From an uncultured bacterium (GTDB lineage Bacteria > Eisenbacteria > RBG-16-71-46 > CAIMUX01 > WJJG01): a stretch of 64,000 bases of DNA. Below are positions 46,865 through 63,243 of the stretch, in pieces (within the stretch, counting starts at the first letter, position 1; each line of letters starts with the position of its first letter). The translations under genes were made by a program, and so were the position numbers. The DNA lies in assembly GCA_964573295.1 (NCBI GenBank), contig CAZNJE010000002.1, positions 31,351-95,350 of the forward strand, read 5' to 3'. The notes beneath the pieces are model-generated. The model was not told the origin of the DNA and did not search any database. It was given only the letters and a program-made list of their open reading frames with translations.

Positions 46865-48569
46865 AGGGTTGTATCGACTTCTTGATCTTCGCCCAAGTGT
46901 CGCGCAGGGTCACCGTCCGGTTGAACACGGGCGCCGCGGGACTCGAGTCTTCCGAATCCATGCAGAAATAACCCTGGCGCTCGAACTGCAGAAAATCCCC
47001 TATTCGAGCCTCGGCCGCCGCGGGCTCGACCTTGCAACCTGGCAGAACCGTGAGGGAGTCGGAATTGATGCTGTCGACGAACGACCCCCCCTCGGGCACC
47101 TCCTGCGGGTTCTCCTTGGTGAAGAGGTGGTCGTAGAGGCGGACCTCGGCATCATGGGCGTGCTGAGCCGATACCCAGTGCAACGTAGCTTTCACCTTGC
47201 GGCCGTCGGGCGCGTTCCCGCCCCGCGTGGCAGGATCATAGGTGCAGCGCAACTCGACGATCTCGCCGGTGGCTGGGTCCTTGACGACTTCCTCGCACTT
47301 GATGAAATAAGCGTAGCGCAGGCGCACCTCCCGGCCGGGGCCCAGACGGAAGAACTTCTTGGGCGGGTCCTCCATGAAGTCATCACGCTCGATGTAGAGC
47401 TCACCGGAGAACGGGACCATTCGAGTACCGGCCGAAGCGTCCTCGGGGTTGTTGATGCACTCGACCTCTTCGGCCTCATTCACCGGGTAGTTCGTGATCA
47501 CGACCTTGAGCGGCTTGAGAACCGCCATGAGCCGCTGGGCCCGCTTGTTCAGGTCCTCCCGCAGGCAGAACTCGAGCAGGGCCAGGTCCACCACGTTCTC
47601 GCGTTTGGCGATTCCGATACGTCCCAGGAAGTCGCGGATCGCGGGCGGCGAATAGCCCCGCCGACGCATCCCCTTGAGGGTGGGCATCCGTGGGTCGTCC
47701 CAGCCGGCCACGTAGCCTTCCTCCACGAGCTGGCGCAGACGACGCTTGCTCAGCACCGTGTTGGTCATGTTCATGCGGGCGAACTCATACTGCTTCGAGG
47801 GAAAGACCCCCAGGGTCTCGATGTACCAGTCGTAGAGCGGCCGGTGATCGACGAACTCGATCGAACACAGCGAATGGGTCACCCGCTCGATCGAATCCGA
47901 CAGGCAGTGGGTGAAGTCGTACATCGGGTAGATGCACCATGTGTCCCCGGTCCGGTGGTGGTGCGCACGAAGGATGCGGTAGACCACCGGATCGCGCATG
48001 TTTAGGTTGCCGGCCGCCATGTCGATCTTCGCCCGCAGGGTCCGGGACCCGTCGGGAAATTCCCCGGCTCGCATGCGCGTGAACAGATCCAGGTTCTCCT
48101 CGATCGAGCGATCTCGGAAGGGGCTCTCCTTGCCCGGCTCGGTGAGCGTGCCCCGGTACTCGCGCATCTGGTCGGGTGTGAGGTCGCAGACGTAGGCCTT
48201 GCCCATCTTGACCAGCTGGATCGCGTAGTCGTAGAGCTGCTCGAAGTAGTCGGAGGCGAAGTAGAGCCGGTCCTCCCAGTCGTAGCCGAGCCAGCGAATG
48301 TCGGCCTGGATGCCGTCGACGAACTCCTGCTCTTCCTTGATCGGGTTGGTGTCGTCGAAGCGCAGGTTGCACTGGCCACCGAATTCCTCGGCCACGCTGA
48401 AGTTCAGGTGAATCGCCTTGGCGTGCCCGATGTGGAGATATCCGTTCGGCTCCGGGGGAAAGCGAGTCTGAACGGTCTCGTGCTTCCCCGCGGCCAGATC
48501 GGTCTGGATGATCGCCCGCACGAAATCCACCTGGGCCGTCTCGTTCGAGTTCTTCGTCGGATCGCTCAT
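46863..48569 (-). CDS. glnS: Glutaminyl-tRNA synthetase
   Basis: HIGH ([12 protein letters not shown]) and KMSKS-like (VLSKRR) motifs, anticodon-binding beta-barrels. ATG at 48569. Confidence 0.9.
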
Positions 48570-48678
48570 GTGAACATCTCTCCCGCGCGAGGCCTTCGCG
48601 CTCCATGTCTCCGCAGCGACTCTCCGGGGCATTCGTGTGATGCCATCGGGCTCGCCCTCGGCCGCCCGATCGCGCTCT

Positions 48679-48750
48679 CCCTCGCTGGTCGGACCGGGTG
48701 CCCCCTCGCTGGTCGGACCGGGCACCCCCCCGCTGGTCCGACCGGGCCGA
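48679..48750. repeat. 24-bp tandem repeat x3 between gltX and glnS
   Basis: ctcgctggtcggaccgggtgcccc-like units at 48681, 48705 and 48729. Confidence 0.85.
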
Positions 48751-48756
48751 CCCGAC

Positions 48757-50250
48757 CTACTCACCTCCGAAGAGAGCGGCGTACTCCTTCTCCAGTTTCT
48801 TGAGCCGTTTCGAGGAGACGCCACCCAGCAGCTCGATCGCCCGGCGCAATCGCATGCGCACCATGTCCGAGCCCAGCACCTCCATCGAGCCGTAGAGCGG
48901 CGTCCACACCTTGGTGCCACTCAAGGCCACATAGAGCGGCAAATTGAGGTCGCGGACCTTGACCTCGATCCGCTCGGCGATCTGCTTCAGGCAACCCTCG
49001 ATCCGTTCGGCGGTGAACTCCCGCAGCTTCTCGAGCTCCCAGACCACCATCTGCAGAATCGCTACCAGGTCTTCCACCTCCTTGCCCTTCATTTTCAGCT
49101 GCTCGAGATCCACCGCCACCTCGTCGCTGAAGAAGGGTGCGGTCAAACGGCCCCAGTCGGCCATCGTCTCGAGCCGGGGATGGATCAAGGGCATGATGCG
49201 GTCGAAAGTCTCGGTGTTCAAGGCCCAGGCTTCGAGCTGGCGCCGCAGGCCCTGGTCGTCGTAATCCTCGCGCAGGTACCGGCCGTTGAGCCAGCGCAGC
49301 TTGTCGGTGTCGAAGACCGGCCCGCCCAGGGAGATATCCTCCAGCTTCAGGTGCTCGGCCATCTGCTCGCGGGTGAACTTCTCCTCCCCATCGGGCATCA
49401 ACCAGCCCATCATCCCCAGGAAGTTCAGCAGCGCTTCGGGCAAATAGCCGGCGCGCCGGTAGTAGTGGATCGAGGTCGGGTTCTTGCGCTTCGAGAGCTT
49501 GGTCTTGTTGGCATCGTTGTTGCGCAAGAGGGGCAGGTGGCAGAAGACCGGAGGCTCCCACCCGAAATGCTCGTAGAGCTTCAGGTGCTTCGGCACCGAG
49601 TTGATCCACTCCTCGCCGCGGATGACGTGGGTCACCCCCATCAGATGGTCATCGACCACGTTGGCCAGATGGTAGGTCGGCAACCCGTCGGACTTCATGA
49701 TCACCTGGTCGTCGACCGAGGCCCAGTCCTTGCGAATCTCGCCGCGCAGGAGATCGTGCATCACGCACTCGCCTTCCAGCGGGATCTTAATCCGGACCAC
49801 GTGCGGCTCTCCCGCCTTCGCCCGGCGTTGCGCCTCTTCGGGCGGGATCGACCGGCAGTGGCGGTCGTAGCCCAACTGGGAGGCCTTCTCGGCCTGCAGG
49901 CGGACCCGCATCTCATCGAGCCGCTCCTTCGTGCAGAAGCAGCGGTAGGCGTGCCCGGCCTCCAGCAGGCGCTCCACGTGCTCGGTGTAGATTGCCGAGC
50001 GCTCGCTCTGGCGGTATGGCGCGTGCGGACCGCCCACATCGGGCCCTTCGTCCCACTGCAACCCGAGCCAGCGCAGCGAGGAAAGGATGGCCTCCTCGGA
50101 CTGCTTGGTGGAACGTACCTGGTCGGTGTCCTCGATGCGAAGGATGAACGTGCCGCCGCGGCCCTTCGCGAAGGCGTGGTTGAACAGCGCCTGGTACGCC
50201 GTACCGACGTGGGGATCCCCGGTCGGCGAAGGCGCGATGCGGGTGCGCAC
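48757..50250 (-). CDS. gltX: Glutamyl-tRNA synthetase
   Basis: HIGH ([12 protein letters not shown]) and KLSKR motifs. A GTG at 50250 gives the canonical (M)[11 protein letters not shown]-terminus. The ORF stays open to 50457, encoding a Pro-rich low-complexity extension. Confidence 0.85.
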
Positions 50251-50690
50251 CTCAGTTGATGGTGATGGTGTCGGGGGTGGCGGTACCGGCGGTGGTGTCG
50301 GCGGTGGCGGTGGTGGCGGTGGTGGCGGTGCCGGCGGTGGTGTCGGCGGTGTGGACGATGCCATGGAAGACCTCATGATGGTGTCCCACGTGGAACGACC
50401 TGCCTCGCAATTGCCTACGAAAAGTCCCTGCAAGAGCCCCTGCAAGAGCCCCTGCAAGAGCCCCTACGAAGAGCCCCTGCGAAAAGAGCTGATACCGCAT
50501 GCGGGCCCGATGTGGGCCCGCATGTGAAGAGAGAATGTTCGGGGTTTCAAGGGCCGGAGTCAAGCCAAGCCTGGAACGGCTCGACTCACGCGGCCCACCG
50601 TCCGGTCGATAGGGACCGTCGTAGAACACAAAGAGGTCGCCGGCGTCACCCTCAGGCAACCGCCGTCCGAGACCAACCGCCCAACGTCCT

Positions 50691-54495: not shown

Positions 54496-55731
54496 TCAGT
54501 CCGTCCACCTGCCAAACATTGGCACAACTTCCAGCGGCCTGCCGATCAGGTCTTCCGCGTCACGGCCGTTGCCGTCTGGTGGCCCCGCGTTGAAGGCCTT
54601 CTCGACCGGCTTCCAGTTGCGGCAAAGAACGACGTCATCGGTGCTCAACCAGAAGACCCGGTCGACGGCTGGGTCGCAATCGAGTACGACCTGAACTTGC
54701 TCGCAGAAGATCCCGTTCCGATCGAATACATCCCAGACCTGGTAGATTCCTGGCGGCGGATCCAGGGCGCCACGACTCGGCAGCACCCAGAGCTTCCCAT
54801 CGGCGGCGATGCGCATGTCCATGATGTCAGGATCCGTCGGGGCCTCCCGGTACTCCATCACCAGACATCCACCCACTGATACCGATCGCACCGTGTGAAT
54901 GCTGTCCCGTTCGGAGGGGCGCCGAGAACGTGAGGGGTACTCGCGCGTGATTTTCCTGATGACATCTCCGCTCACCGATGTTTGCGTGATGCTGTAGTCA
55001 TTTCGTTCCCCCGCGAGATAGACTGACGTGTCATCGCAAGCGAATCCTGAGATCTGGTACTGCTCGGTCTCGTGACAGACCGGTACATCATCCGAGTAGA
55101 AGAAGTCGCACGTGGCAACATGATACACGGGACCGGGCGAGAAACCGAGCCGCACGCGAAGGAGGTGGCTTCTCGTTCGCGAGCCGGCCCTCCCCGCTTC
55201 GCGAATGGGATCCACATCTGCGCGGAGCGCGACAAGAAAGCCCCTGTTCCCGGCAAGATCATCCGCGACCACCTGATGGCCGGTTCCCGGAATGAACTCA
55301 CTTCCCAAATGCACGCCCTCAGTGCTGTACATGTGAATCGCGGCCGGACGGTGATCCAGAATGCAGACGGTGCTGTCATCCATCGCCAGAAGCTTCCATG
55401 GTACACGAAAGTCACCGGGGCCCTCGCCCGATTGACCAAAGCTCGCCACGCATTCCCCCCAGCGGTCAAACGCATGAACGGCGCACAATTGCCGGTCCAG
55501 CAAAAGCAAGCAGTCCCCAGCGTTGGTAAACGAGACTGGATAGCCAACCAAGCAATTGGCCCCGTCGGTGTCCAGCGGGCGACCCGACTCGAAGCCAAGT
55601 GTCTTGAGTCCCTGAGCCGGCTCGTCAGGGTTCTGGACAACCACAACGGCTCCCACAAGAGCACTCTGGGCGAGCAAGAATGCAACGCACAGAAGTAGCC
55701 TCAACACGGGCTTGTTCCCTCGCAAACGCAC
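54496..55731 (-). CDS. Secreted NHL-repeat six-bladed beta-propeller protein
   Basis: NHL-like repeats (FGQSGEGPGDFRVPWKLLAMDDSTVCILD; ...GIYQVWDVFDRNG). Putative signal peptide (R)LRGNKPVLRLLLCVAFLLAQSALVG starts at GTG 55731, or at a TTG at 55704 that overlaps the upstream stop as TTGA. Lower GC (~57%) than surroundings. Confidence 0.6.
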   Translation of the reverse strand: MRLRGNKPVLRLLLCVAFLLAQSALVGAVVVVQNPDEPAQGLKTLGFESGRPLDTDGANCLVGYPVSFTNAGDCLLLLDRQLCAVHAFDRWGECVASFGQSGEGPGDFRVPWKLLAMDDSTVCILDHRPAAIHMYSTEGVHLGSEFIPGTGHQVVADDLAGNRGFLVALRADVDPIREAGRAGSRTRSHLLRVRLGFSPGPVYHVATCDFFYSDDVPVCHETEQYQISGFACDDTSVYLAGERNDYSITQTSVSGDVIRKITREYPSRSRRPSERDSIHTVRSVSVGGCLVMEYREAPTDPDIMDMRIAADGKLWVLPSRGALDPPPGIYQVWDVFDRNGIFCEQVQVVLDCDPAVDRVFWLSTDDVVLCRNWKPVEKAFNAGPPDGNGRDAEDLIGRPLEVVPMFGRWTD

Positions 55732-55916
55732 AGGCCACTTGGCAAGAGACGGTAGAGGCACATTGTCTCGGTCGCAACGGAAACGCAGTGTCCGGCGGCA
55801 TTGCAGCCGAGCTTGGGACAAGGTGTCGGCTCGGAAGGTTGCTCTTCCGCCTGAGGCAGGACCAGAGCAGTGAAGATGGCAATCAGCAAGAGCACGCAGC
55901 ACAGAAGAGGTCTCAT
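55701..55916 (-). CDS. Small secreted cysteine-rich protein (71-aa precursor)
   Basis: ATG at 55916, 5 nt after AGGAGG. Signal peptide MRPLLCCVLLLIAIFTALVLPQA, mature ~47 aa with 7 Cys (CPKLGCNAAGHCVSVATETMCLYRLLPSGLCVCEGTSPC). Its stop overlaps the downstream propeller gene start. Confidence 0.5.
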   Translation of the reverse strand: MRPLLCCVLLLIAIFTALVLPQAEEQPSEPTPCPKLGCNAAGHCVSVATETMCLYRLLPSGLCVCEGTSPC

Positions 55917-55975
55917 GATATCCTCCTTCATATGTGTGAACTTCGGCACAGCACAGGACAGCAGGAGGGTTACAG

Positions 55976-56369
55976 AATGAAACTAGGCTGCGTGCAGCGT
56001 GTTCGTCAAGGCGCAACACGACTGTGCACGCCGCAATGCCGATCGGCCGTACTCAGCAGGAACTCCGTAAAGCACTCACGGACAGTAGTTTGGCAGATCG
56101 GCCTTCACGGTTATGGAAGACCCTACCTCTATGTCCGCGAGATCGCCCGCGTGGGCCGCCGGCCCGCGACCCTCGAACGGGTCGCGTCCACCCCTCTGGC
56201 AGATGTGCGAGAGGATCGCTGCTGGGAGGACCACATCTACCGCTACGCCAACACCGTTCCCCTGGTGGAGGAGGAAGACGCGCTGAAGGTCAACTGGTGC
56301 GAGGTAACCGTTACCTCAAAGAAGGGCAAACTCGGCCACGGCAAACAGCACCTCTCATCCGTGCCCTGA
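55976..56369 (+). CDS. Hypothetical small protein (131 aa), divergent from the Cys-rich peptide gene
   Basis: ATG 9 nt after GGAGGG. The C-terminal half has genome-typical high-GC3 codon usage. No recognisable domain. Confidence 0.3.
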
Positions 56370-56806
56370 CTCACTACATGTGCTTCCCTTCCTGGAAGGC
56401 ACTCATGGAGTTCATGATGCGTGGACTGGAGATCGGCCCGTACGAGGTCAAATGAGCCGCCCTCAGGGCGAGCTATGCCCGGGCGACTTCACTCACAGCT
56501 ATTGGGGCCCTCGCGACTGAGAAGTGACGCCCGCAACCGCGCTAACGCAGCCCCTTAGCGCCTCTCTTTCACCCCCAACCGGTCCACACCGGGGCCACGG
56601 CCCGGCCCCTCTGGACCCTTGGCCTTCTCCTGGATCCTGGGTAGCGGGATCTGCACGCCAGAATGAGAATTGCTGCGTGGGCTGCGGCTCCGCTTGATGT
56701 TTGGCTGCCGATTGCCGACTATCGGCAGAATCGCCGGCGGCCGGCCCGCGGCGACCCTGGCCAGGGTGGGGCCGCCACCATCTCAACCTCCAATCGAGGA
56801 ACGATC

Positions 56807-58201
56807 ATGAGCGAGAAAGCCTACAGCGGCAGCTGGAAGGAACAGCCCGAAGCCGCCGCCTACCTGGATGGTCTTTTCCATTCCTGCTTGCGGCACTTCC
56901 CGGCCTTGGAATGCTTGGCAGGCCGCGTGCTCGATGAAACCAGCTCGCGACTCTACGACTATGTCGACGCCTTCGTCCTGCCGGACACCGACGCGGTGAC
57001 CGGCCGGTTCGTGGAGCTCGGGTTCGCGGAAGAGCCCGGCGTGGCATGCGCGCCGACAGAGACGAGCTTCCATCACCCCGGCGCGATCTTCCCGCGCATA
57101 CTTCTGCGTTCGGGCGCCGGCGGCGACACGCCCCTCGGCATTCACCTACAGGTCGAGAGTCTCTCGCGCTGCCTGGCGGCGATCGGCCGGACGGCGGTGA
57201 TCGCAGGCGATCCGCTGGCCCCCTACCGCCGGGCCGTCCTGACCTCGACCGGCGAGTTGGAGTGGGTGCTGAGTGAGCGCCGCGGCACGCTCGATCACGT
57301 TCCGCCGCGGACGGCACCGGACCACGCGCACCGCTACCTCCTGGGAGTCGAGCGGTGGCTGCATCGCCAGCGCCGCTACGACCGCCTGGAAGACGGCCTG
57401 ACCGCGACCCTGAAACTGGCTCGCGATCTGGTGACCGACTTCGGCCGCGACGAAGCAGCCTGGATCGCCTTCGAGGCCGAGCGCATCTACTGGGAGCAGC
57501 GCAATCTGACCGCGCGCACGCAGAAGCGCCGTCTGGACGCTCTGGGCCTGGGCTGGGCCAACCATGATCACCACACCTTCCGCAGCTCGCGGCAGGCGTT
57601 CCCGCACCTCATCGAGACCCTCGAGACCTTCGGCTTCCAGTGCCGCGAGCAGTTCTACGCTGGGCGCGAGGCCGGCTGGGGCGCACAGGTTCTGGAGCAC
57701 CCGGTGTGCCGCATCGCCATCTTCGCCGACGTGGATCTGGCGCCCGAAGAGGTGGAGGGCGACTTCGCGCACAAGCCACTGCCCCCACGCGCAGAGCTGG
57801 GCACGGTGGGCCTCTGGTGCGCCCTCCACGGCGAGTCGATCCTGGAGGCGGGCCTCCACCACCTGGCCGGCCGGTTCGAATTCGACCGCTTTCGTGAAGA
57901 CATCACGCGCGAGGGCCGGGGAATGCTCGATCCGTTCGCCAACACCGACCTGCTGCGCCAGGCCTTCTCCGAAGGCGAGCGCTGGGCCGTCCCGCGGGAC
58001 CGCTTGGAGCGACTCGTCGCGCAGAAGGTCATCGATCAGGAGCAAGCCGACCGCTTCGGGACCCAGGGGGTGATCGGCAGCCACATCGAGAACATCCAGC
58101 GCGGACTGGGTTTCAAAGGCTTCAGCCAGAAGAGCGTGAGCGACATCATCCGGCGTACCGATCCCCGGGCCGAGGGCGCGAGCGCGGGAGGAGGCCAATG
58201 A
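56807..58201 (+). CDS. Hypothetical 464-aa protein, possibly DUF1338/HglS-like (not verified)
   Basis: ATG at 56807 after GAGGA. His-rich NHDHHTFRS segment. Its stop overlaps the start of the downstream 2-hydroxyacid dehydrogenase (ATGA). Confidence 0.6.
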   Translation: MSEKAYSGSWKEQPEAAAYLDGLFHSCLRHFPALECLAGRVLDETSSRLYDYVDAFVLPDTDAVTGRFVELGFAEEPGVACAPTETSFHHPGAIFPRILLRSGAGGDTPLGIHLQVESLSRCLAAIGRTAVIAGDPLAPYRRAVLTSTGELEWVLSERRGTLDHVPPRTAPDHAHRYLLGVERWLHRQRRYDRLEDGLTATLKLARDLVTDFGRDEAAWIAFEAERIYWEQRNLTARTQKRRLDALGLGWANHDHHTFRSSRQAFPHLIETLETFGFQCREQFYAGREAGWGAQVLEHPVCRIAIFADVDLAPEEVEGDFAHKPLPPRAELGTVGLWCALHGESILEAGLHHLAGRFEFDRFREDITREGRGMLDPFANTDLLRQAFSEGERWAVPRDRLERLVAQKVIDQEQADRFGTQGVIGSHIENIQRGLGFKGFSQKSVSDIIRRTDPRAEGASAGGGQ

Positions 58202-59367
58202 GCGACGCCTACGACAGCAGCAGGTCAGATGCGGTCTCCGATCCCTACGATGTGTTCTTCTACGAGGCCTTCGAGGAGGAGGCCGATTTGCTGGGGCAGT
58301 ACCTGCCCACCGACCTGCGTGCCGGCTTCACCTGGAAGACCATTCAAGAAACCGGCCAGGTCGAGCCAGCGGCGCCCATCATCAGTACGCGCACCCAGTC
58401 GGTCCTGCCCCCGGCCTGGGCGCCCAAGCTGCAGGCAATCCTGAGCCGCAGCACCGGTTACGACCACCTGATCCACTACCGGGAGACCACCGGCATCTCG
58501 CTGCCGTGCGGCTACCTGCCGCGCTACTGCCACAGGGCGGTTGCGGAGCAGGCCATGCTTCTGTGGACGGCCCTGCTACGCCGGCTCCCACGTCAGATCG
58601 AGCAGTTTCGCCACTTCGAGCGCGACGGGCTCACCGGCGCCGAGTGCAAGGGCAAGACCCTGATCGTGGTGGGCGTCGGCAACGTGGGCTCACAGGTCGT
58701 CCGTATCGGACAGGGTCTGGAGATGCGGGTCATCGGCGTCGACCTCGAGCCGAAGGACGACTCTGTGCCCTATGAGCCCATCGAGAAGGCGCTACCGCAC
58801 GCGGATGTGATCGCCTGCTGCATGAACCTGACGCCGGAGAACGTGGGCTACTTCAGTCGCGAGCGCCTGCTGGCGGCGCCGCGGGGCGTCGTGTTCGTCA
58901 ACGTCGCCCGCGGGCAGATGGCGCCCTCGCGAGTGTTGCTACCGTTGCTGAGAGACGGACACCTGGGCGGCGTGGGGTTGGACGTCTTTGCCGAGGAGAG
59001 CGCGCTCGCCGTTCAGCTCCGCGGGGAAGTGCCGGGGCAAGCCATCGCGGGCGTCGGCGATGCGAGCCCGTGCGCAACCGACACCGATGAAGCCGGACCT
59101 GGCGAAGCCGGACCTGACAAGACCGGACCTGACAAGACCGGCCCTGACGAGACCGGCCCTGGCAAAACCGGACCTGGCGAGACCGGTTCCGGTGAGGTGG
59201 CCGCGGAGGTGCGCGCCACACTCGAGTTGGCGCGCACGGCCGGCGCGATCCTGACCCCGCACAACGCCTTCAACAGTGTCGAAGCCGTGGATCGCAAGGC
59301 GCAGCAGAGCATCGAGCAGATCGAGGCGTTTCGGGGCGACGGCGCGTTTCTGTGGCCGGTGCCATAG
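58198..59367 (+). CDS. D-isomer-specific 2-hydroxyacid dehydrogenase family protein (NAD-binding) with a repeat-encoded loop insertion
   Basis: GKTLIVVGVGNVGSQV Rossmann motif, catalytic region (VNVARG...D, LTPHNAF His). In-frame (E/K)(A/T)GPx x7 insertion from a 15-bp repeat at 59089-59193. Confidence 0.8.
   Translation: MSDAYDSSRSDAVSDPYDVFFYEAFEEEADLLGQYLPTDLRAGFTWKTIQETGQVEPAAPIISTRTQSVLPPAWAPKLQAILSRSTGYDHLIHYRETTGISLPCGYLPRYCHRAVAEQAMLLWTALLRRLPRQIEQFRHFERDGLTGAECKGKTLIVVGVGNVGSQVVRIGQGLEMRVIGVDLEPKDDSVPYEPIEKALPHADVIACCMNLTPENVGYFSRERLLAAPRGVVFVNVARGQMAPSRVLLPLLRDGHLGGVGLDVFAEESALAVQLRGEVPGQAIAGVGDASPCATDTDEAGPGEAGPDKTGPDKTGPDETGPGKTGPGETGSGEVAAEVRATLELARTAGAILTPHNAFNSVEAVDRKAQQSIEQIEAFRGDGAFLWPVP
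59089..59193 (+). repeat. 15-bp tandem repeat x7 inside the 2-hydroxyacid dehydrogenase coding region (in frame)
   Basis: gaagccggacctggc / gaagccggacctgac / aagaccggacctgac / aagaccggccctgac / gagaccggccctggc / aaaaccggacctggc / gagaccggttccggt. Confidence 0.9.
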
Positions 59368-59432: not shown

Positions 59433-61484
59433 CTAGGCGCCGAACGCCTCGTCGATCGCGCCGCGCACCGTGTCCGCATCGGCTTCCGCCGCCAGGGTGA
59501 CCTGCATCCCTTCCTCCGCGCCCGCGGCGCGCTCGACCGCGTAGCGCGCGCCCGGATTGCCGGCCCATGCGCGGCGGGCCAGGCCGTGCGAAACGTCCCA
59601 GGAGAGCATGCCGCGGGCGCGCCGGTCGGCCTCGGCCGATCCGTCGAGCACCATACCGAAACCACCGTTGATGACCTCACCCCAGCCCACGCCGCCGCCA
59701 TTGTGAAGCGACACCCACGTGGCGCCGCGGAACGCGTCGCCCACGAAGTTCTGCACGGCCATGTCGGCGGTCAGTTGCGAGCCATCGAGGATGTTGGCCG
59801 TCTCGCGGTACGGCGAATCGGTCCCCGAGACGTCGTGATGGTCCCGGCCCAGCACGATCGGCGCGGTGACGCGTCCTGCGCGGATCGCCGCGTTGAAGGC
59901 CAGCGCGATATCGATCCGTCCTTGCCGGTCCGCATAGAGGATGCGGGCCTGCGAGCCGACCACCATGCGGTTCTCCTCGGCCTGTCGGATCCAGCGCACA
60001 TTGTCGAGCATCTGCTGCTTGATCTGCTCGTCCGCACTCGCGGCCATCTCTTCCAGGATTCCGGCGGCGAGCCGGTCGGTCGTGTGAAGGTCGGCCGGGT
60101 TGCCGGAGGTACAGACCCAGCGGAAGGGCCCGAACCCGTAGTCGAAGCACATCGGTCCCATGATGTCCTCGACGTAGGAGGGATAGGTGAAGCCGCCGTC
60201 TGGGCGGTTGATCCCCGGGGCCCCGGCGCGCGAGGCCTCGAGCAAGAAAGCGTTGCCGTAGTCCCAGAAGTTCATGCCGCGTGCGTGCAGGGAATGGATC
60301 GCGGCCACCTGGCGGCGCAGCGATTCCTGCACGCGCTCCGCGAAGCCCTCGGGATCGGCCGTCATCATGCGGTTGCTGTCTTCGAAGGGCAACCCGGCCG
60401 GGTAGTAGCCACCCAGGTAGGGATTGTGAAGCGAGGTCTGATCGCTCCCCAGCTCGACCGAGATGCCCTCCTTGGCAAGCCGCTCCCACAAGTCGACGAT
60501 GTTGCCCAGGTAGCCGATCGACACCGGCTTGCGCTCGGCCACGGCGCGATCGATGCGCGAGAGCAGTTTGTCCAGGTCCTCTTCGTATTCGTCCAGCCAG
60601 CCCTGTTCGTGACGGGTCTTGAGCGGCTTGGGGTTGATCTCGGCAATGACACCCACCGCGCCGGCGATCACCGCCGCCTTCGCCTGCGCGCCGCTCATGC
60701 CGCCCAGGCCGGAGGTCACGAACAGCTTTCCCTCCAGGCCCTGGCCGGGTTCGAGGCCGAGATACTTGCGGCCCGCGTTGAGCAGCGTGATGGTCGTGCC
60801 GTGGACGATCCCCTGCGGGCCGATGTACATGAAACTGCCGGCAGTCATCTGCCCGTAGCTGGTAACGCCCAGGGCCGAGAGCCGGTCGTACTCGGCCCGC
60901 GAGCTGTAGTTGGGAATCACCATGCCGTTGGTGACAACCACCCGTGGCGCTTCCGGGTGCGAGGGGAACAGGCCCAGCGGGTGCCCCGAGTAGAGCACCA
61001 GCGTCTGCTCCTCGGTCATCTCACAGAGGTACTTCATCGTCAGCAGGTACTGCGCCCAGTTCTGGAAGACCGTGCCGTTGCCGCCGTAGGTCACCAGCTC
61101 GTAAGGATGCTGCGCGACCCGCTTGTCGAGGTTGTTCTGGATCATCAGCATGATCGCGGCGGCCTGCTTCGTTCGGGCGGGGTAGTCGCCGATCGGACGG
61201 GCCTTCATCTCGTAACTCGGGCGAAACCGGCGCATGTAGATGCGTCCATCGTTGGCCAGCTCGCGCGCGAACTCCGGCGCCAGGCTCTCGTGCATGGTTT
61301 GGGGGAAGTAGCGCAGCGCGTTCTGCAGCGCCAGCTCCTGCTCCCGCCGGGACAACACCTGCGGACGGACCGGCGCGTGGTTGATGCCCGGTTCCTCGGG
61401 GGGCATCTCGGGGATCGACGCCGGGATCCCCTGCCGGATGGCATCCTGGAACGATTGGCGCACCTGGGTGTCGCTGCTTGTCAT
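59433..61484 (-). CDS. hutU: Urocanate hydratase (long form)
   Basis: Full-length urocanase similarity (YGGNGTVFQNW, GQMTAGSFMYIGPQGIVHGT, NAD-binding GLGGMSGAQ). ATG at 61484 after GGGAGG. Confidence 0.9.
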   Translation of the reverse strand: MTSSDTQVRQSFQDAIRQGIPASIPEMPPEEPGINHAPVRPQVLSRREQELALQNALRYFPQTMHESLAPEFARELANDGRIYMRRFRPSYEMKARPIGDYPARTKQAAAIMLMIQNNLDKRVAQHPYELVTYGGNGTVFQNWAQYLLTMKYLCEMTEEQTLVLYSGHPLGLFPSHPEAPRVVVTNGMVIPNYSSRAEYDRLSALGVTSYGQMTAGSFMYIGPQGIVHGTTITLLNAGRKYLGLEPGQGLEGKLFVTSGLGGMSGAQAKAAVIAGAVGVIAEINPKPLKTRHEQGWLDEYEEDLDKLLSRIDRAVAERKPVSIGYLGNIVDLWERLAKEGISVELGSDQTSLHNPYLGGYYPAGLPFEDSNRMMTADPEGFAERVQESLRRQVAAIHSLHARGMNFWDYGNAFLLEASRAGAPGINRPDGGFTYPSYVEDIMGPMCFDYGFGPFRWVCTSGNPADLHTTDRLAAGILEEMAASADEQIKQQMLDNVRWIRQAEENRMVVGSQARILYADRQGRIDIALAFNAAIRAGRVTAPIVLGRDHHDVSGTDSPYRETANILDGSQLTADMAVQNFVGDAFRGATWVSLHNGGGVGWGEVINGGFGMVLDGSAEADRRARGMLSWDVSHGLARRAWAGNPGARYAVERAAGAEEGMQVTLAAEADADTVRGAIDEAFGA

Positions 61485-61836
61485 GTCTGCCTCCCAGAAG
61501 TCATTGGCATCGGTCGTGTTGTGCGGCTTGGCCGCGTGACAGCGTTCCACGCATCTCCCACGCACCCGAGGGCGCGTACACGTGTCACCGGCGCGGAATC
61601 AGAGCCTGCCGTCAGCGCGGGCGATGATAGCGCGGATGCGGCGGAGCTGGCCACTCTGTTCTGTCCGAGGGCTCAGGCTGCACCACCGTACTGACGATGG
61701 GGGTACCAGAGAGGCGACTCAGCGCACCCGGAAGCAACAGGCAGCCCGGCCAGCCTGGCCACCCGACCCGGCCCGGCCCGGGAGTAGCCCGGACGCCCCG
61801 CAGGCCGCCATTCGTTCTCGACCGAAGGAGCCAGAT

Positions 61837-63243
61837 ATGCCAAGACGCTTCCGCGATCTCGATCGATGGTCGCATCCAACATCAGCCTGGAAAAAGGTGG
61901 CCACTCTCGCAGGCCTCCTGGTGTTCCTCGCACCGGTCTCCTGCGAAGACGATCACGGCACCGTGCCCACCACAGACGACCCGGAACTCACGCCCGCGGG
62001 CGGCACCCTGATCACGCACGTGGCCTCACCGGAGAACGGCCTCATCGCCGTTCGCGTGGCGCTCCCCGATGCTCCGCGCTACCCCGAAGGGGCGCCGGTG
62101 GTGGTGCACGCCTCCACGTTCTTCGCGGGCGAGCGCACCTTCCACCAGCACTTCGACTCCCCGCGCGTCGGCGCCATCGCGGTCTCCTACCTCCGTCCCG
62201 GAATCACCGACCCCCAGACCGGGGCCAGCAGCAGCGGAACGACCGACTACGGAGGCCCGAATCACCTGGCGGCGCTACGCGATGTGATCCGCTTCGCCTG
62301 CGGCGCGACTCCCGACACGGCGGGCCGCACGATCGACGAGCTGGTGGCCGTGACACCGCTCACCGGCAACGTCGGTCTGTTCGCATCCTCCCATTCAGGG
62401 ATCGTGGCCACGAACGTTCTGGCCCATCACGGGGATCAGATGCCCAAGCTCCAGTATCTGGTGGGGCGCGAAAACCCCACGCGTGACGAGATGTACCCGC
62501 TCGAGATCGGCCACTTCACCGATACGCGGGAACAGATCGACAACCCGCACTATCACGCCGAGGAGTACACGCCCACCACCATCGTGGTCGACTATACCGG
62601 GTTGGCCTGGATCGACGATGGCATCACCCCCCACGGTCGGCCCGACTACGTCGACGGCGAGGGCAACCCGCTGGGCTACTTGCATCCGGTGATCTGCCCC
62701 AAGATGTGGAACCGGCGCTACTACTCCCGAAGTCTAACGGCTGCGCTCGTCGACAGCGGCGTGCTGGACCCGGAGACCAACTGGCCGGCCGATCTCGCCA
62801 CGCCGCAGCAGGCGCGCGAGGCGTGGTCCGAGCGAATCACCGTGCACAACTACCCCCGAATCCCCGCGGCCCTCTCCCAACTCAGAGTAATGCTCGTCTT
62901 CGCGGAGAAGGACCACGTGCAGGCCGCCCCCGACAAACCCCACATTCGGCAGGCCTACGACGGGTTCACCAACGGCGCCTCCCTACCCTGGGTACGGCTC
63001 AACCCGGACCGGGTCTACGCCCAGGCCGTCAATCCGGCCTACGGAAGCGAGATGCCCGACACGCCCGCCAACACGCCGCCTGATGACTGGATGAACGCGG
63101 AGGCCTTCGGCTTCCCCGACGTGACGGCCGATACGAAGTACGAGATCCCGCTGGCCGCCATCGCCGAGATGGCCGACCGGGTGCGAAGTGAGGACTGGAG
63201 CCCGAACCTGAATGCGATGTTGTACGAATACGAGGCCGATTAG
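61837..63243 (+). CDS. Lipoprotein of unknown function
   Basis: ATG at 61837, 8 nt after AAGGAG. Signal peptide with LAPVSC lipobox. ~450-aa mature domain without recognised motifs. Confidence 0.6.
   Translation: MPRRFRDLDRWSHPTSAWKKVATLAGLLVFLAPVSCEDDHGTVPTTDDPELTPAGGTLITHVASPENGLIAVRVALPDAPRYPEGAPVVVHASTFFAGERTFHQHFDSPRVGAIAVSYLRPGITDPQTGASSSGTTDYGGPNHLAALRDVIRFACGATPDTAGRTIDELVAVTPLTGNVGLFASSHSGIVATNVLAHHGDQMPKLQYLVGRENPTRDEMYPLEIGHFTDTREQIDNPHYHAEEYTPTTIVVDYTGLAWIDDGITPHGRPDYVDGEGNPLGYLHPVICPKMWNRRYYSRSLTAALVDSGVLDPETNWPADLATPQQAREAWSERITVHNYPRIPAALSQLRVMLVFAEKDHVQAAPDKPHIRQAYDGFTNGASLPWVRLNPDRVYAQAVNPAYGSEMPDTPANTPPDDWMNAEAFGFPDVTADTKYEIPLAAIAEMADRVRSEDWSPNLNAMLYEYEAD

Follow-up and report, generated by a model that had tools for sequence, protein, structure and literature searches.

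The 64-kb stretch of DNA analysed here (64,000 nucleotides of contig CAZNJE010000002.1 from an uncultured bacterium of the Eisenbacteria; hereafter the window) carries two overlapping open reading frames (ORFs), ORF A and ORF B. ORF A belongs to an unannotated protein family whose predicted fold resembles that of DUF1338/HglS enzymes, which are in the superfamily known as vicinal oxygen chelate (VOC), and ORF B encodes an NAD-type 2-hydroxyacid dehydrogenase. The pair is organized as follows.

56796..56800, + strand: ribosome-binding site GAGGA of ORF A, 6 nt before the ATG, read from the sequence
56807..58201, + strand: ORF A (ATG at 56807, TGA ending at 58201; 464 aa), placed by searches and predicted structure in an unannotated family whose VOC fold is predicted to be DUF1338/HglS-like
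58186..58194, + strand: ribosome-binding site GGGAGGAGG of ORF B, located within the 3' end of ORF A
58198..58201, + strand: ATGA start/stop overlap of ORF A and ORF B, also found in the close relatives L004, L006 and L015
58198..59367, + strand: ORF B (ATG at 58198, stop ending at 59367; 389 aa), NAD-dependent D-isomer-specific 2-hydroxyacid dehydrogenase, assigned from PF02826, PDB relatives and eight orthologs

An earlier reading of these letters (the sequence-only reading) had described the ATGA overlap and a hutU gene downstream on the opposite strand. Both are borne out, the latter by an ORF at 59433-61565 on the minus strand that contains all three urocanase domains and converges on ORF B. 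A longer in-frame alternative for ORF A starts at 56663; we took 56807 as the start because the homologs are about 460 aa long and align from there. The GC content at third codon positions (GC3) of the two genes, 0.83-0.84, is typical for the window, and both have conserved homologs, which identifies them as real genes. Promoter and terminator scans and an Rfam scan around the pair gave nothing exceeding background. In the window, ORF A and ORF B form a self-contained two-gene unit.

The ORF A family is large. It comprises more than 6244 clusters at 90% identity, nearly all of about 460 aa, every one lacking Pfam domains and named "hypothetical protein"; at 50% identity there are about 1000 clusters. 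In a search of representatives with ORF A, the best 150 matches listed were all family members. Relatives occur at no fewer than 569 places in a one-genome-per-species collection, almost all in metagenome-assembled genomes (MAGs), and are spread over Chloroflexota, Planctomycetota, environmental Chlamydiota, Nitrospirota, Acidobacteriota, Calditrichota, Gemmatimonadota and other phyla. One homolog (L054) comes from an isolate, Schlesneria sp. T3-172 (NZ_CP172346.1); a tblastn search of plasmids with ORF A gave no match. The absence of an assignable motif reported by the sequence-only reading agrees with our Pfam and NCBIfam scans of ORF A, which returned no match at E≤0.1, and no covering model for the family is present in Pfam (2025 copy) or NCBIfam (June 2026). 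In the literature we found no paper describing a second HglS-like family.

A confident AlphaFold model of ORF A computed from 40 sequences (pLDDT 85, pTM 0.86) contains the central β-sheet domain characteristic of DUF1338 crystal structures, with the paired β-α-β-β-β modules of the VOC superfamily and putative metal ligands on their strands. Foldseek searches of the PDB with the full-length model retrieved 4-hydroxyphenylpyruvate dioxygenase (HPPD) and hydroxymandelate synthase (HMS) at E ~1e-8 with low TM-scores. When residues 170-464 were modelled alone (pLDDT 90.9), the scores with DUF1338 structures rose to 16.3, 16.0 and 15.6 over 188-209 aligned residues at 2.7-3.4 Å, while that with HMS fell to 12.4. 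This opposite movement of the scores led us to divide ORF A into three parts.

56807..57310, + strand: N-terminal β-rich domain, approximately residues 1-168, extra to the DUF1338-like core (DSSP of the model)
57314..57541, + strand: helical segment, approximately residues 170-245, before the catalytic domain (predicted structure)
57542..58171, + strand: C-terminal VOC-type domain, approximately residues 246-455, with the putative metal and substrate site (model and domain-only searches)

The DUF1338 match is not weakened by removal of the N-terminal domain. The DUF1338 (PF07063) structures considered were those of Pseudomonas putida HglS (PP_5260; 6w1g/6w1h), Escherichia coli YdcJ (2rjb) and rice FLO7 (6w1k), together with 3iuz and 3lho. 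HPPD and HMS score lower than DUF1338, especially against the catalytic part alone, and have no Pfam match in ORF A; the genomic contexts of the ORF A family are aliphatic (lysine) rather than aromatic. They are thus neither the closest structural family nor a guide to an aromatic 2-oxoacid context for ORF A. Compared with HglS, ORF A has an additional N-terminal β domain of ~170 residues and the helical segment ahead of its catalytic domain, and the agreement in length with HglS (464 residues in the 6w1g chain) is a coincidence.

Conserved residues of the N-terminal domain are D54, H90, E117 (or Asp), E157 and R158. Most of the family has His at position 55, where the window protein has Ala and the residue varies elsewhere; Ala occurs there in five of the nine sequences paired with an NAD-type dehydrogenase (eight loci and the window). 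Comparison of the N- and C-terminal domains of the family with hhalign gave a probability of 10%, a weak hint of duplication. The N-terminal domain may be a degenerate VOC module, a regulatory domain or an oligomerization domain.

Three conserved motifs of the C-terminal domain outline a putative metal and substrate site.

57560..57592, + strand: N-H-D-H255-H-T-F-R259-S-S-R262, with the putative first metal His and, four residues on, R259 as the candidate Arg for a distal carboxylate
57857..57862, + strand: H351-H352 in GLHHLA, with H352 as the putative second metal His, from an alignment with an epimerase and its invariance
58076..58105, + strand: G-S-H-I-E428-N-I-Q-R-G, with E428 as the putative metal Glu

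The residues H255, R259, H352 and E428 are invariant in all 40 aligned homologs and present in all 83 homologs taken from genome loci, regardless of gene context. Among 95 full-length representatives of the 50% clusters they are kept in 71, the divergent tail having lost at least one. H255, H352 and E428 each lie on a predicted strand, and their His-His-Glu order is that of HglS, whose motifs as read from 6w1g are ER-H70-GAI-R74, IN-H226-LT and FG-E294-IEQRG. ORF A and HglS therefore have in common the order of the triad, the H-x3-R spacing (H255/R259 and H70/R74) and the sequence E-x-x-Q-R-G. The Arg four residues past the first His, R259 in ORF A, is the putative counterpart of Arg74 of HglS and Arg64 of FLO7; in the comparison with HPPD and HMS, such an Arg is the feature of DUF1338. 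In HglS, Arg74 binds the distal carboxylate of 2-oxoadipate and the R74A variant is inactive; the His-His-Glu triad is kept in 86% of DUF1338 proteins, nearly all of which also keep the Arg (PMC7286885). The spacing of the two His residues differs: in HglS the first His lies close to the N-terminus and H226 comes after a long insertion, whereas H255 and H352 of ORF A are 97 residues apart.

Searches of PDB sequences with phmmer and with profiles (ORF A, the family alignment A1 and the domain-only alignment A4) returned only a weak match to methylmalonyl-CoA epimerase (1jc4; E 0.12 with the family profile, 0.066 with the domain-only profile). This alignment places GLHHLA over GLHHMA, with H352 opposite H91, which we take to be a metal ligand of the epimerase. 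Together with the motifs, it suggests H255, H352 and E428 as the metal ligands. The sequence-only reading had likened ORF A to HglS on the basis of its size and of the segment NHDHHTFRS (residues 252-260, 57560-57586); the segment stands, having the H-x3-R spacing of HglS, and the argument from size does not. The 2-His-1-carboxylate site that it had proposed to look for in a predicted structure has a plausible counterpart in the conserved, strand-borne triad, as a putative metal site.

A divergent sub-branch of the family (P0220, P0222, P0224, P0253, P0259, P0260, P0265 and P0267 in alignment A2) is missing more than one of H255, R259, H352 and E428 at a time, and its members often lack the C-terminal GFKGF...TDPR tail. 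R262, D310, R158 and R432 are better conserved than the putative metal ligands. The sub-branch may consist of non-catalytic paralogs.

ORF B was recognized by the sequence-only reading as a D-2-hydroxyacid dehydrogenase, and its match to PF02826 (2-Hacid_dh_C; 3.7e-30, 105 bits against a cutoff of 25.1) confirms the assignment. The catalytic domain PF00389 scores 19.7 bits, under its cutoff of 24.6, and the N-terminal region aligns with 8i5z from residue 14. ORF B and all eight orthologs conserve GVGNVG, NVARG, DVFxxE (DVFAEE) and TPHNAF, presumably the nucleotide-binding and the Arg, Glu and His catalytic positions. The 2-Hacid_dh_C domain, the GxGxxG motif and the Arg/Glu/His positions are shared with the (R)-2-hydroxyglutarate dehydrogenase HgdH (1xdw), D-lactate dehydrogenases and PGDH/SerA. 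HgdH and SerA interconvert 2-oxoglutarate and D-2-hydroxyglutarate. The nearest solved relatives of ORF B are 8i5z (1e-28), D-lactate dehydrogenases (1e-21 to 1e-23) and 1xdw (2e-17), so that ORF B is not specifically close to HgdH, from which it also differs by a lineage-specific insertion containing a repeat.

59093..59186, + strand: 15-bp tandem repeat, 6.3 copies, consensus CCGGACCTGACAAGA, encoding GPDxT pentapeptides, inside the ORF B insertion

The insertion, of about 60 aa, lies between DVFxxE and TPHNAF. It is restricted to the immediate lineage of the window and missing from more distant orthologs, and its length varies among close relatives: the protein has 389 aa here, 379 in L015 and 354 in L004.

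To describe the surroundings of the family, ORFs were clustered across 86 loci carrying an ORF A homolog. Five partner genes stand out.

ORF B ortholog, 8 of 86 loci: NAD-type 2-hydroxyacid dehydrogenase, 47-90% identity, 0-90 bp downstream on the same strand
FAD-linked oxidase, 13 of 86 loci: best NCBIfam match D-2-hydroxyglutarate dehydrogenase YdiJ
Class-III aminotransferase, 7 of 86 loci: L-lysine 6-transaminase (LAT)
Saccharopine dehydrogenase, 6 of 86 loci: PF03435 and PF16653
Aldehyde dehydrogenase, 4 of 86 loci: generic, without a specific equivalog

About 31 of the 86 loci have at least one of them; the others give no information on partners. Those FAD oxidases that are ~950 aa long have the YdiJ architecture of an FAD domain and a GlpC-like Fe-S domain and reach 624 bits, under the equivalog cutoff; LAT is identified by TIGR03251 at 687 bits against a cutoff of 520.8. 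Two Nitrospirota MAGs (L042, L077) and one of Pelobacter (L067) have LAT, FAD oxidase and ORF A homolog in this order on a single strand; in a further Nitrospirota MAG (L057) the order is kept, but an ORF on the opposite strand intervenes. In P. putida, HglS makes D-2-hydroxyglutarate, which YdiJ (PP_4493) then oxidizes to 2-oxoglutarate, and DUF1338 genes are often found beside "glycolate dehydrogenase"-like genes and L-lysine aminotransferases (10.1101/450254). The genuine HglS genes on Paracoccus and Rhizobium plasmids (L012, L013) are likewise directly followed by an FAD-binding oxidoreductase gene. The partners of the ORF A family are thus those described for genuine DUF1338/HglS genes. 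For the family, then, there is a genomic association with lysine catabolism and a D-2-hydroxyglutarate dehydrogenase; the window itself does not show it.

In the lineage of the window and in Calditrichota, the dehydrogenase partner is the NAD-type ORF B ortholog instead of a YdiJ-like protein. The eight loci are the close relatives L004, L006 and L015, a 59% homolog with different flanks (L008), an unclassified MAG (L023), a Calditrichaeota MAG (L025) and two Caldithrix MAGs (L026, L040); in the last four, ORF A is 45-48% identical to that of the window. The small number of these loci, and the lack of a specific functional assignment for ORF B, would suit an arrangement in which the genes are co-transcribed without a common pathway, ORF A having the proposed function or a different one and ORF B being an unrelated 2-hydroxyacid dehydrogenase. 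We regard this as very improbable: the pairing persists at 45-48% identity for ORF A and 47% for ORF B in different flanks (L008, L023, L025, L026, L040), the start/stop overlap is retained in close relatives, and elsewhere the partner slot holds an analogous FAD-type D-2-hydroxyacid dehydrogenase. The case for ORF A as a producer or consumer of a D-2-hydroxyacid is made most strongly by the two unrelated kinds of D-2-hydroxyacid dehydrogenase that fill this slot in different lineages.

Two further observations concern the loci compared here. Upstream of the plasmid-borne HglS genes lies a divergent LysR regulator gene, and in Paracoccus the HglS and FAD oxidoreductase genes share 4 bases, so that they are coupled on the same principle as the window pair with its ATGA. 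At about 20 loci (within L029-L090, mostly environmental Chlamydiota), two genes lie upstream of the homolog on its strand, one for an NAD-dependent epimerase and one for a PfkB-family kinase that has a C-terminal extension; they presumably resemble lipopolysaccharide heptose genes. We considered a functional link with these genes and judged the arrangement to be lineage synteny, since the genes appear together as a single block and the genomes concerned are closely related.

On the evidence of fold, conserved residues and gene context, ORF A is very probably a VOC metalloenzyme related to DUF1338, with a 2-oxo or 2-hydroxy dicarboxylate as its substrate. With less confidence, we favour its being a deeply divergent HglS-type Fe(II) 2-oxoacid dioxygenase/decarboxylase, with ORF B linking D-2-hydroxyglutarate and 2-oxoglutarate. 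The pairing of a DUF1338/HglS-type enzyme with a dehydrogenase was the idea of the sequence-only reading; fold and gene context support it, and the hidden Markov model (HMM) search proposed as its check does not. Under this reading, ORF A would bind one non-haem Fe(II) in its VOC fold through H255, H352 and E428. By analogy with HglS, a 2-oxo-dicarboxylate, most likely 2-oxoadipate, would chelate the metal via its 2-oxo-carboxylate, with R259 gripping the distal carboxylate; reaction with O2 would then decarboxylate it oxidatively and hydroxylate it, leaving a D-2-hydroxyacid with one carbon fewer. The likeliest reaction, which belongs to the late part of lysine catabolism, would be 2-oxoadipate + O2 → D-2-hydroxyglutarate + CO2. 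The translationally coupled ORF B would interconvert D-2-hydroxyglutarate and 2-oxoglutarate and so replace the FAD/Fe-S dehydrogenase YdiJ, the partner of the ORF A family and of genuine HglS elsewhere.

A known system close to this is the HglS-YdiJ pair of D-lysine catabolism in P. putida (2-oxoadipate to D-2-hydroxyglutarate to 2-oxoglutarate). In both, genes for an oxygenase (predicted, for ORF A) and a D-2-hydroxyacid dehydrogenase are adjacent or nearby, and YdiJ-like partners stand beside the ORF A family at 13 loci. The window partner differs in being NAD-dependent and D-isomer-specific, with another fold and cofactor, which would change the thermodynamics and perhaps the direction of the step.

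Several observations weigh against the HglS-type assignment, beginning with the sequence searches. PF07063 (DUF1338), the model against which the sequence-only reading had proposed to check ORF A, does not match it in the Pfam scan at E≤0.1 and has zero matches in 38 diverse family members at E≤10. The proposed VOC models fare little better, the Glyoxalase models PF00903 (E 0.052) and PF13669 (E 0.091) each matching one of the 38. Family profiles retrieved no DUF1338 chain from the PDB, and hhalign comparison of family alignments A1 and A2 with A3 gave probabilities of 0.2-0.3%. A3 is an alignment of seven sequences (6w1g, E. coli YdcJ and five plasmid homologs found by tblastn) and represents one DUF1338 branch, that of HglS/YdcJ as distinct from that of the short proteins 6w1k, 3lho and 3iuz. 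As far as sequence goes, ORF A appears to be no detectable DUF1338 member, and the residue equivalences drawn above rest on similar motifs, on where the residues sit on the strands and on a single weak HMM alignment. The members of DUF1338 are also very divergent from one another: a phmmer search with E. coli YdcJ does not reach 6w1k, 3lho or 3iuz, and with the A3 profile 3iuz is matched at no better than E 0.006. For this reason, we give the missing sequence link less weight.

The second group of contrary points concerns the partners. At 55 of the 86 loci, none of the five partner genes is present. We found no lysine-pathway gene anywhere in the 64-kb window, and no transporter gene adjoins the pair there. 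ORF B is far under the cutoffs of the NCBIfam equivalogs PGDH, GhrA/B, LdhA, VanH and PdxB (the best being PGDH, with 82 bits against 454), and by its PDB matches it is no closer to the (R)-2-hydroxyglutarate dehydrogenase 1xdw than to D-lactate dehydrogenases. NAD-linked oxidation of D-2-hydroxyglutarate is thermodynamically uphill; ORF B may therefore work in the reductive direction or on another acid.

Some of these points favour an enzyme of the same class, an Fe(II) VOC-fold 2-oxoacid oxidative decarboxylase, acting on a substrate other than 2-oxoadipate, at least in the clade of the window. The substrate could be a different 2-oxo-dicarboxylate or, as for HPPD and HMS, an aromatic 2-oxoacid, with ORF B using the product or supplying the substrate. 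The lack of lysine genes in the window, the extra N-terminal domain, the two-domain layout with its full-length Foldseek match to HPPD and HMS, and the position of ORF B in a distinct dehydrogenase lineage without an equivalog are all consistent with it, as is the mention of contexts beyond lysine for DUF1338 (10.1101/450254). The lower scores of HPPD and HMS against the catalytic part and the lysine-related contexts of the family speak against the aromatic variant, and on balance we consider another substrate unlikely. No canonical HglS was found within the window.

The hosts provide the remaining contrary evidence. Many of them are MAGs with labels such as Anaerolineae (L017-L020), Brocadiales (Kuenenia, L086) and Desulfuromonadales (Pelobacter, L067), groups that consist mainly of anaerobes. 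Such carriers fit an obligate O2 reaction poorly and leave room for O2-independent chemistry, the more so as the Pelobacter MAG carries the LAT - FAD oxidase - homolog operon. ORF A might then be a VOC metalloenzyme with epimerase, isomerase or lyase activity towards a 2-oxo or 2-hydroxy dicarboxylate, its chemistry nearer to that of methylmalonyl-CoA epimerase or glyoxalase I than to that of HglS. The matches to methylmalonyl-CoA epimerase and to the Glyoxalase models, the only ones at the sequence level, point the same way; the His+4 Arg and the scores of the catalytic part point to DUF1338. We judge an enzyme without O2 use to be improbable.

Other features of the window were noted beside the pair. 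The hutU gene was considered as a functional associate and dismissed because it is convergent and conserved at this position only in the two closest relatives, L004 and L015. Its ORF encodes 710 aa, with Urocanase_N beginning at residue 120, and the L004 relative is called at 694 aa; either the protein has an N-terminal extension of ~120 aa or the true start lies further downstream. Beyond it, at 61582-63240 (+ strand), a 553-aa ORF with GC3 0.82 has no Pfam match and is absent from the corresponding position of L004, where an MscS-like gene directly follows hutU. On the other side of the pair, a 507-aa ORF at 54496-56019 (- strand) has a weak β-propeller match (PF17170, under the cutoff) and a GC3 of 0.65, against 0.8-0.88 in its neighbours, and is separated from ORF A by a spacer at 56020-56806. 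In L004, a 98%-identical relative, the genes between an S8 peptidase gene and the ORF A homolog encode 184, 382 and 71 aa, lengths unlike those in the window. This region and the spacer may be a recently exchanged segment. Further away, at 46866-50454 (- strand), lie two adjacent class-I Glu/Gln-type tRNA synthetase genes, one with the Gln-type C-terminal domains PF03950 and PF20974 and the other with the Glu-type Anticodon_2. One of their starts is probably further downstream, since the called ORFs overlap by ~160 bases.

The ORF A family is best described as a deeply divergent variant of the DUF1338/HglS-type VOC oxygenases and not as categorically new. There is a minor chance that it represents a new type of VOC enzyme with a different reaction, reflected in the N-terminal domain and the anaerobe-labelled MAGs; such a reaction could be O2-independent, or it could be the oxidative decarboxylation of another 2-oxo-dicarboxylate, coupled to an NAD- or FAD-type D-2-hydroxyacid dehydrogenase. 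If the family is HglS-type, the phyla listed above have in it a candidate, open to testing, for the enzyme of lysine catabolism that converts 2-oxoadipate to D-2-hydroxyglutarate, and the small group of VOC-fold intramolecular 2-oxoacid oxygenases (HPPD, HMS and HglS) gains a branch that sequence models have missed. With its NAD-type partner, the window would offer a second way besides YdiJ of handling D-2-hydroxyglutarate. The finding is mainly of value because it gives many "hypothetical" proteins a function that can be tested; its practical yield is a new profile for annotating them.

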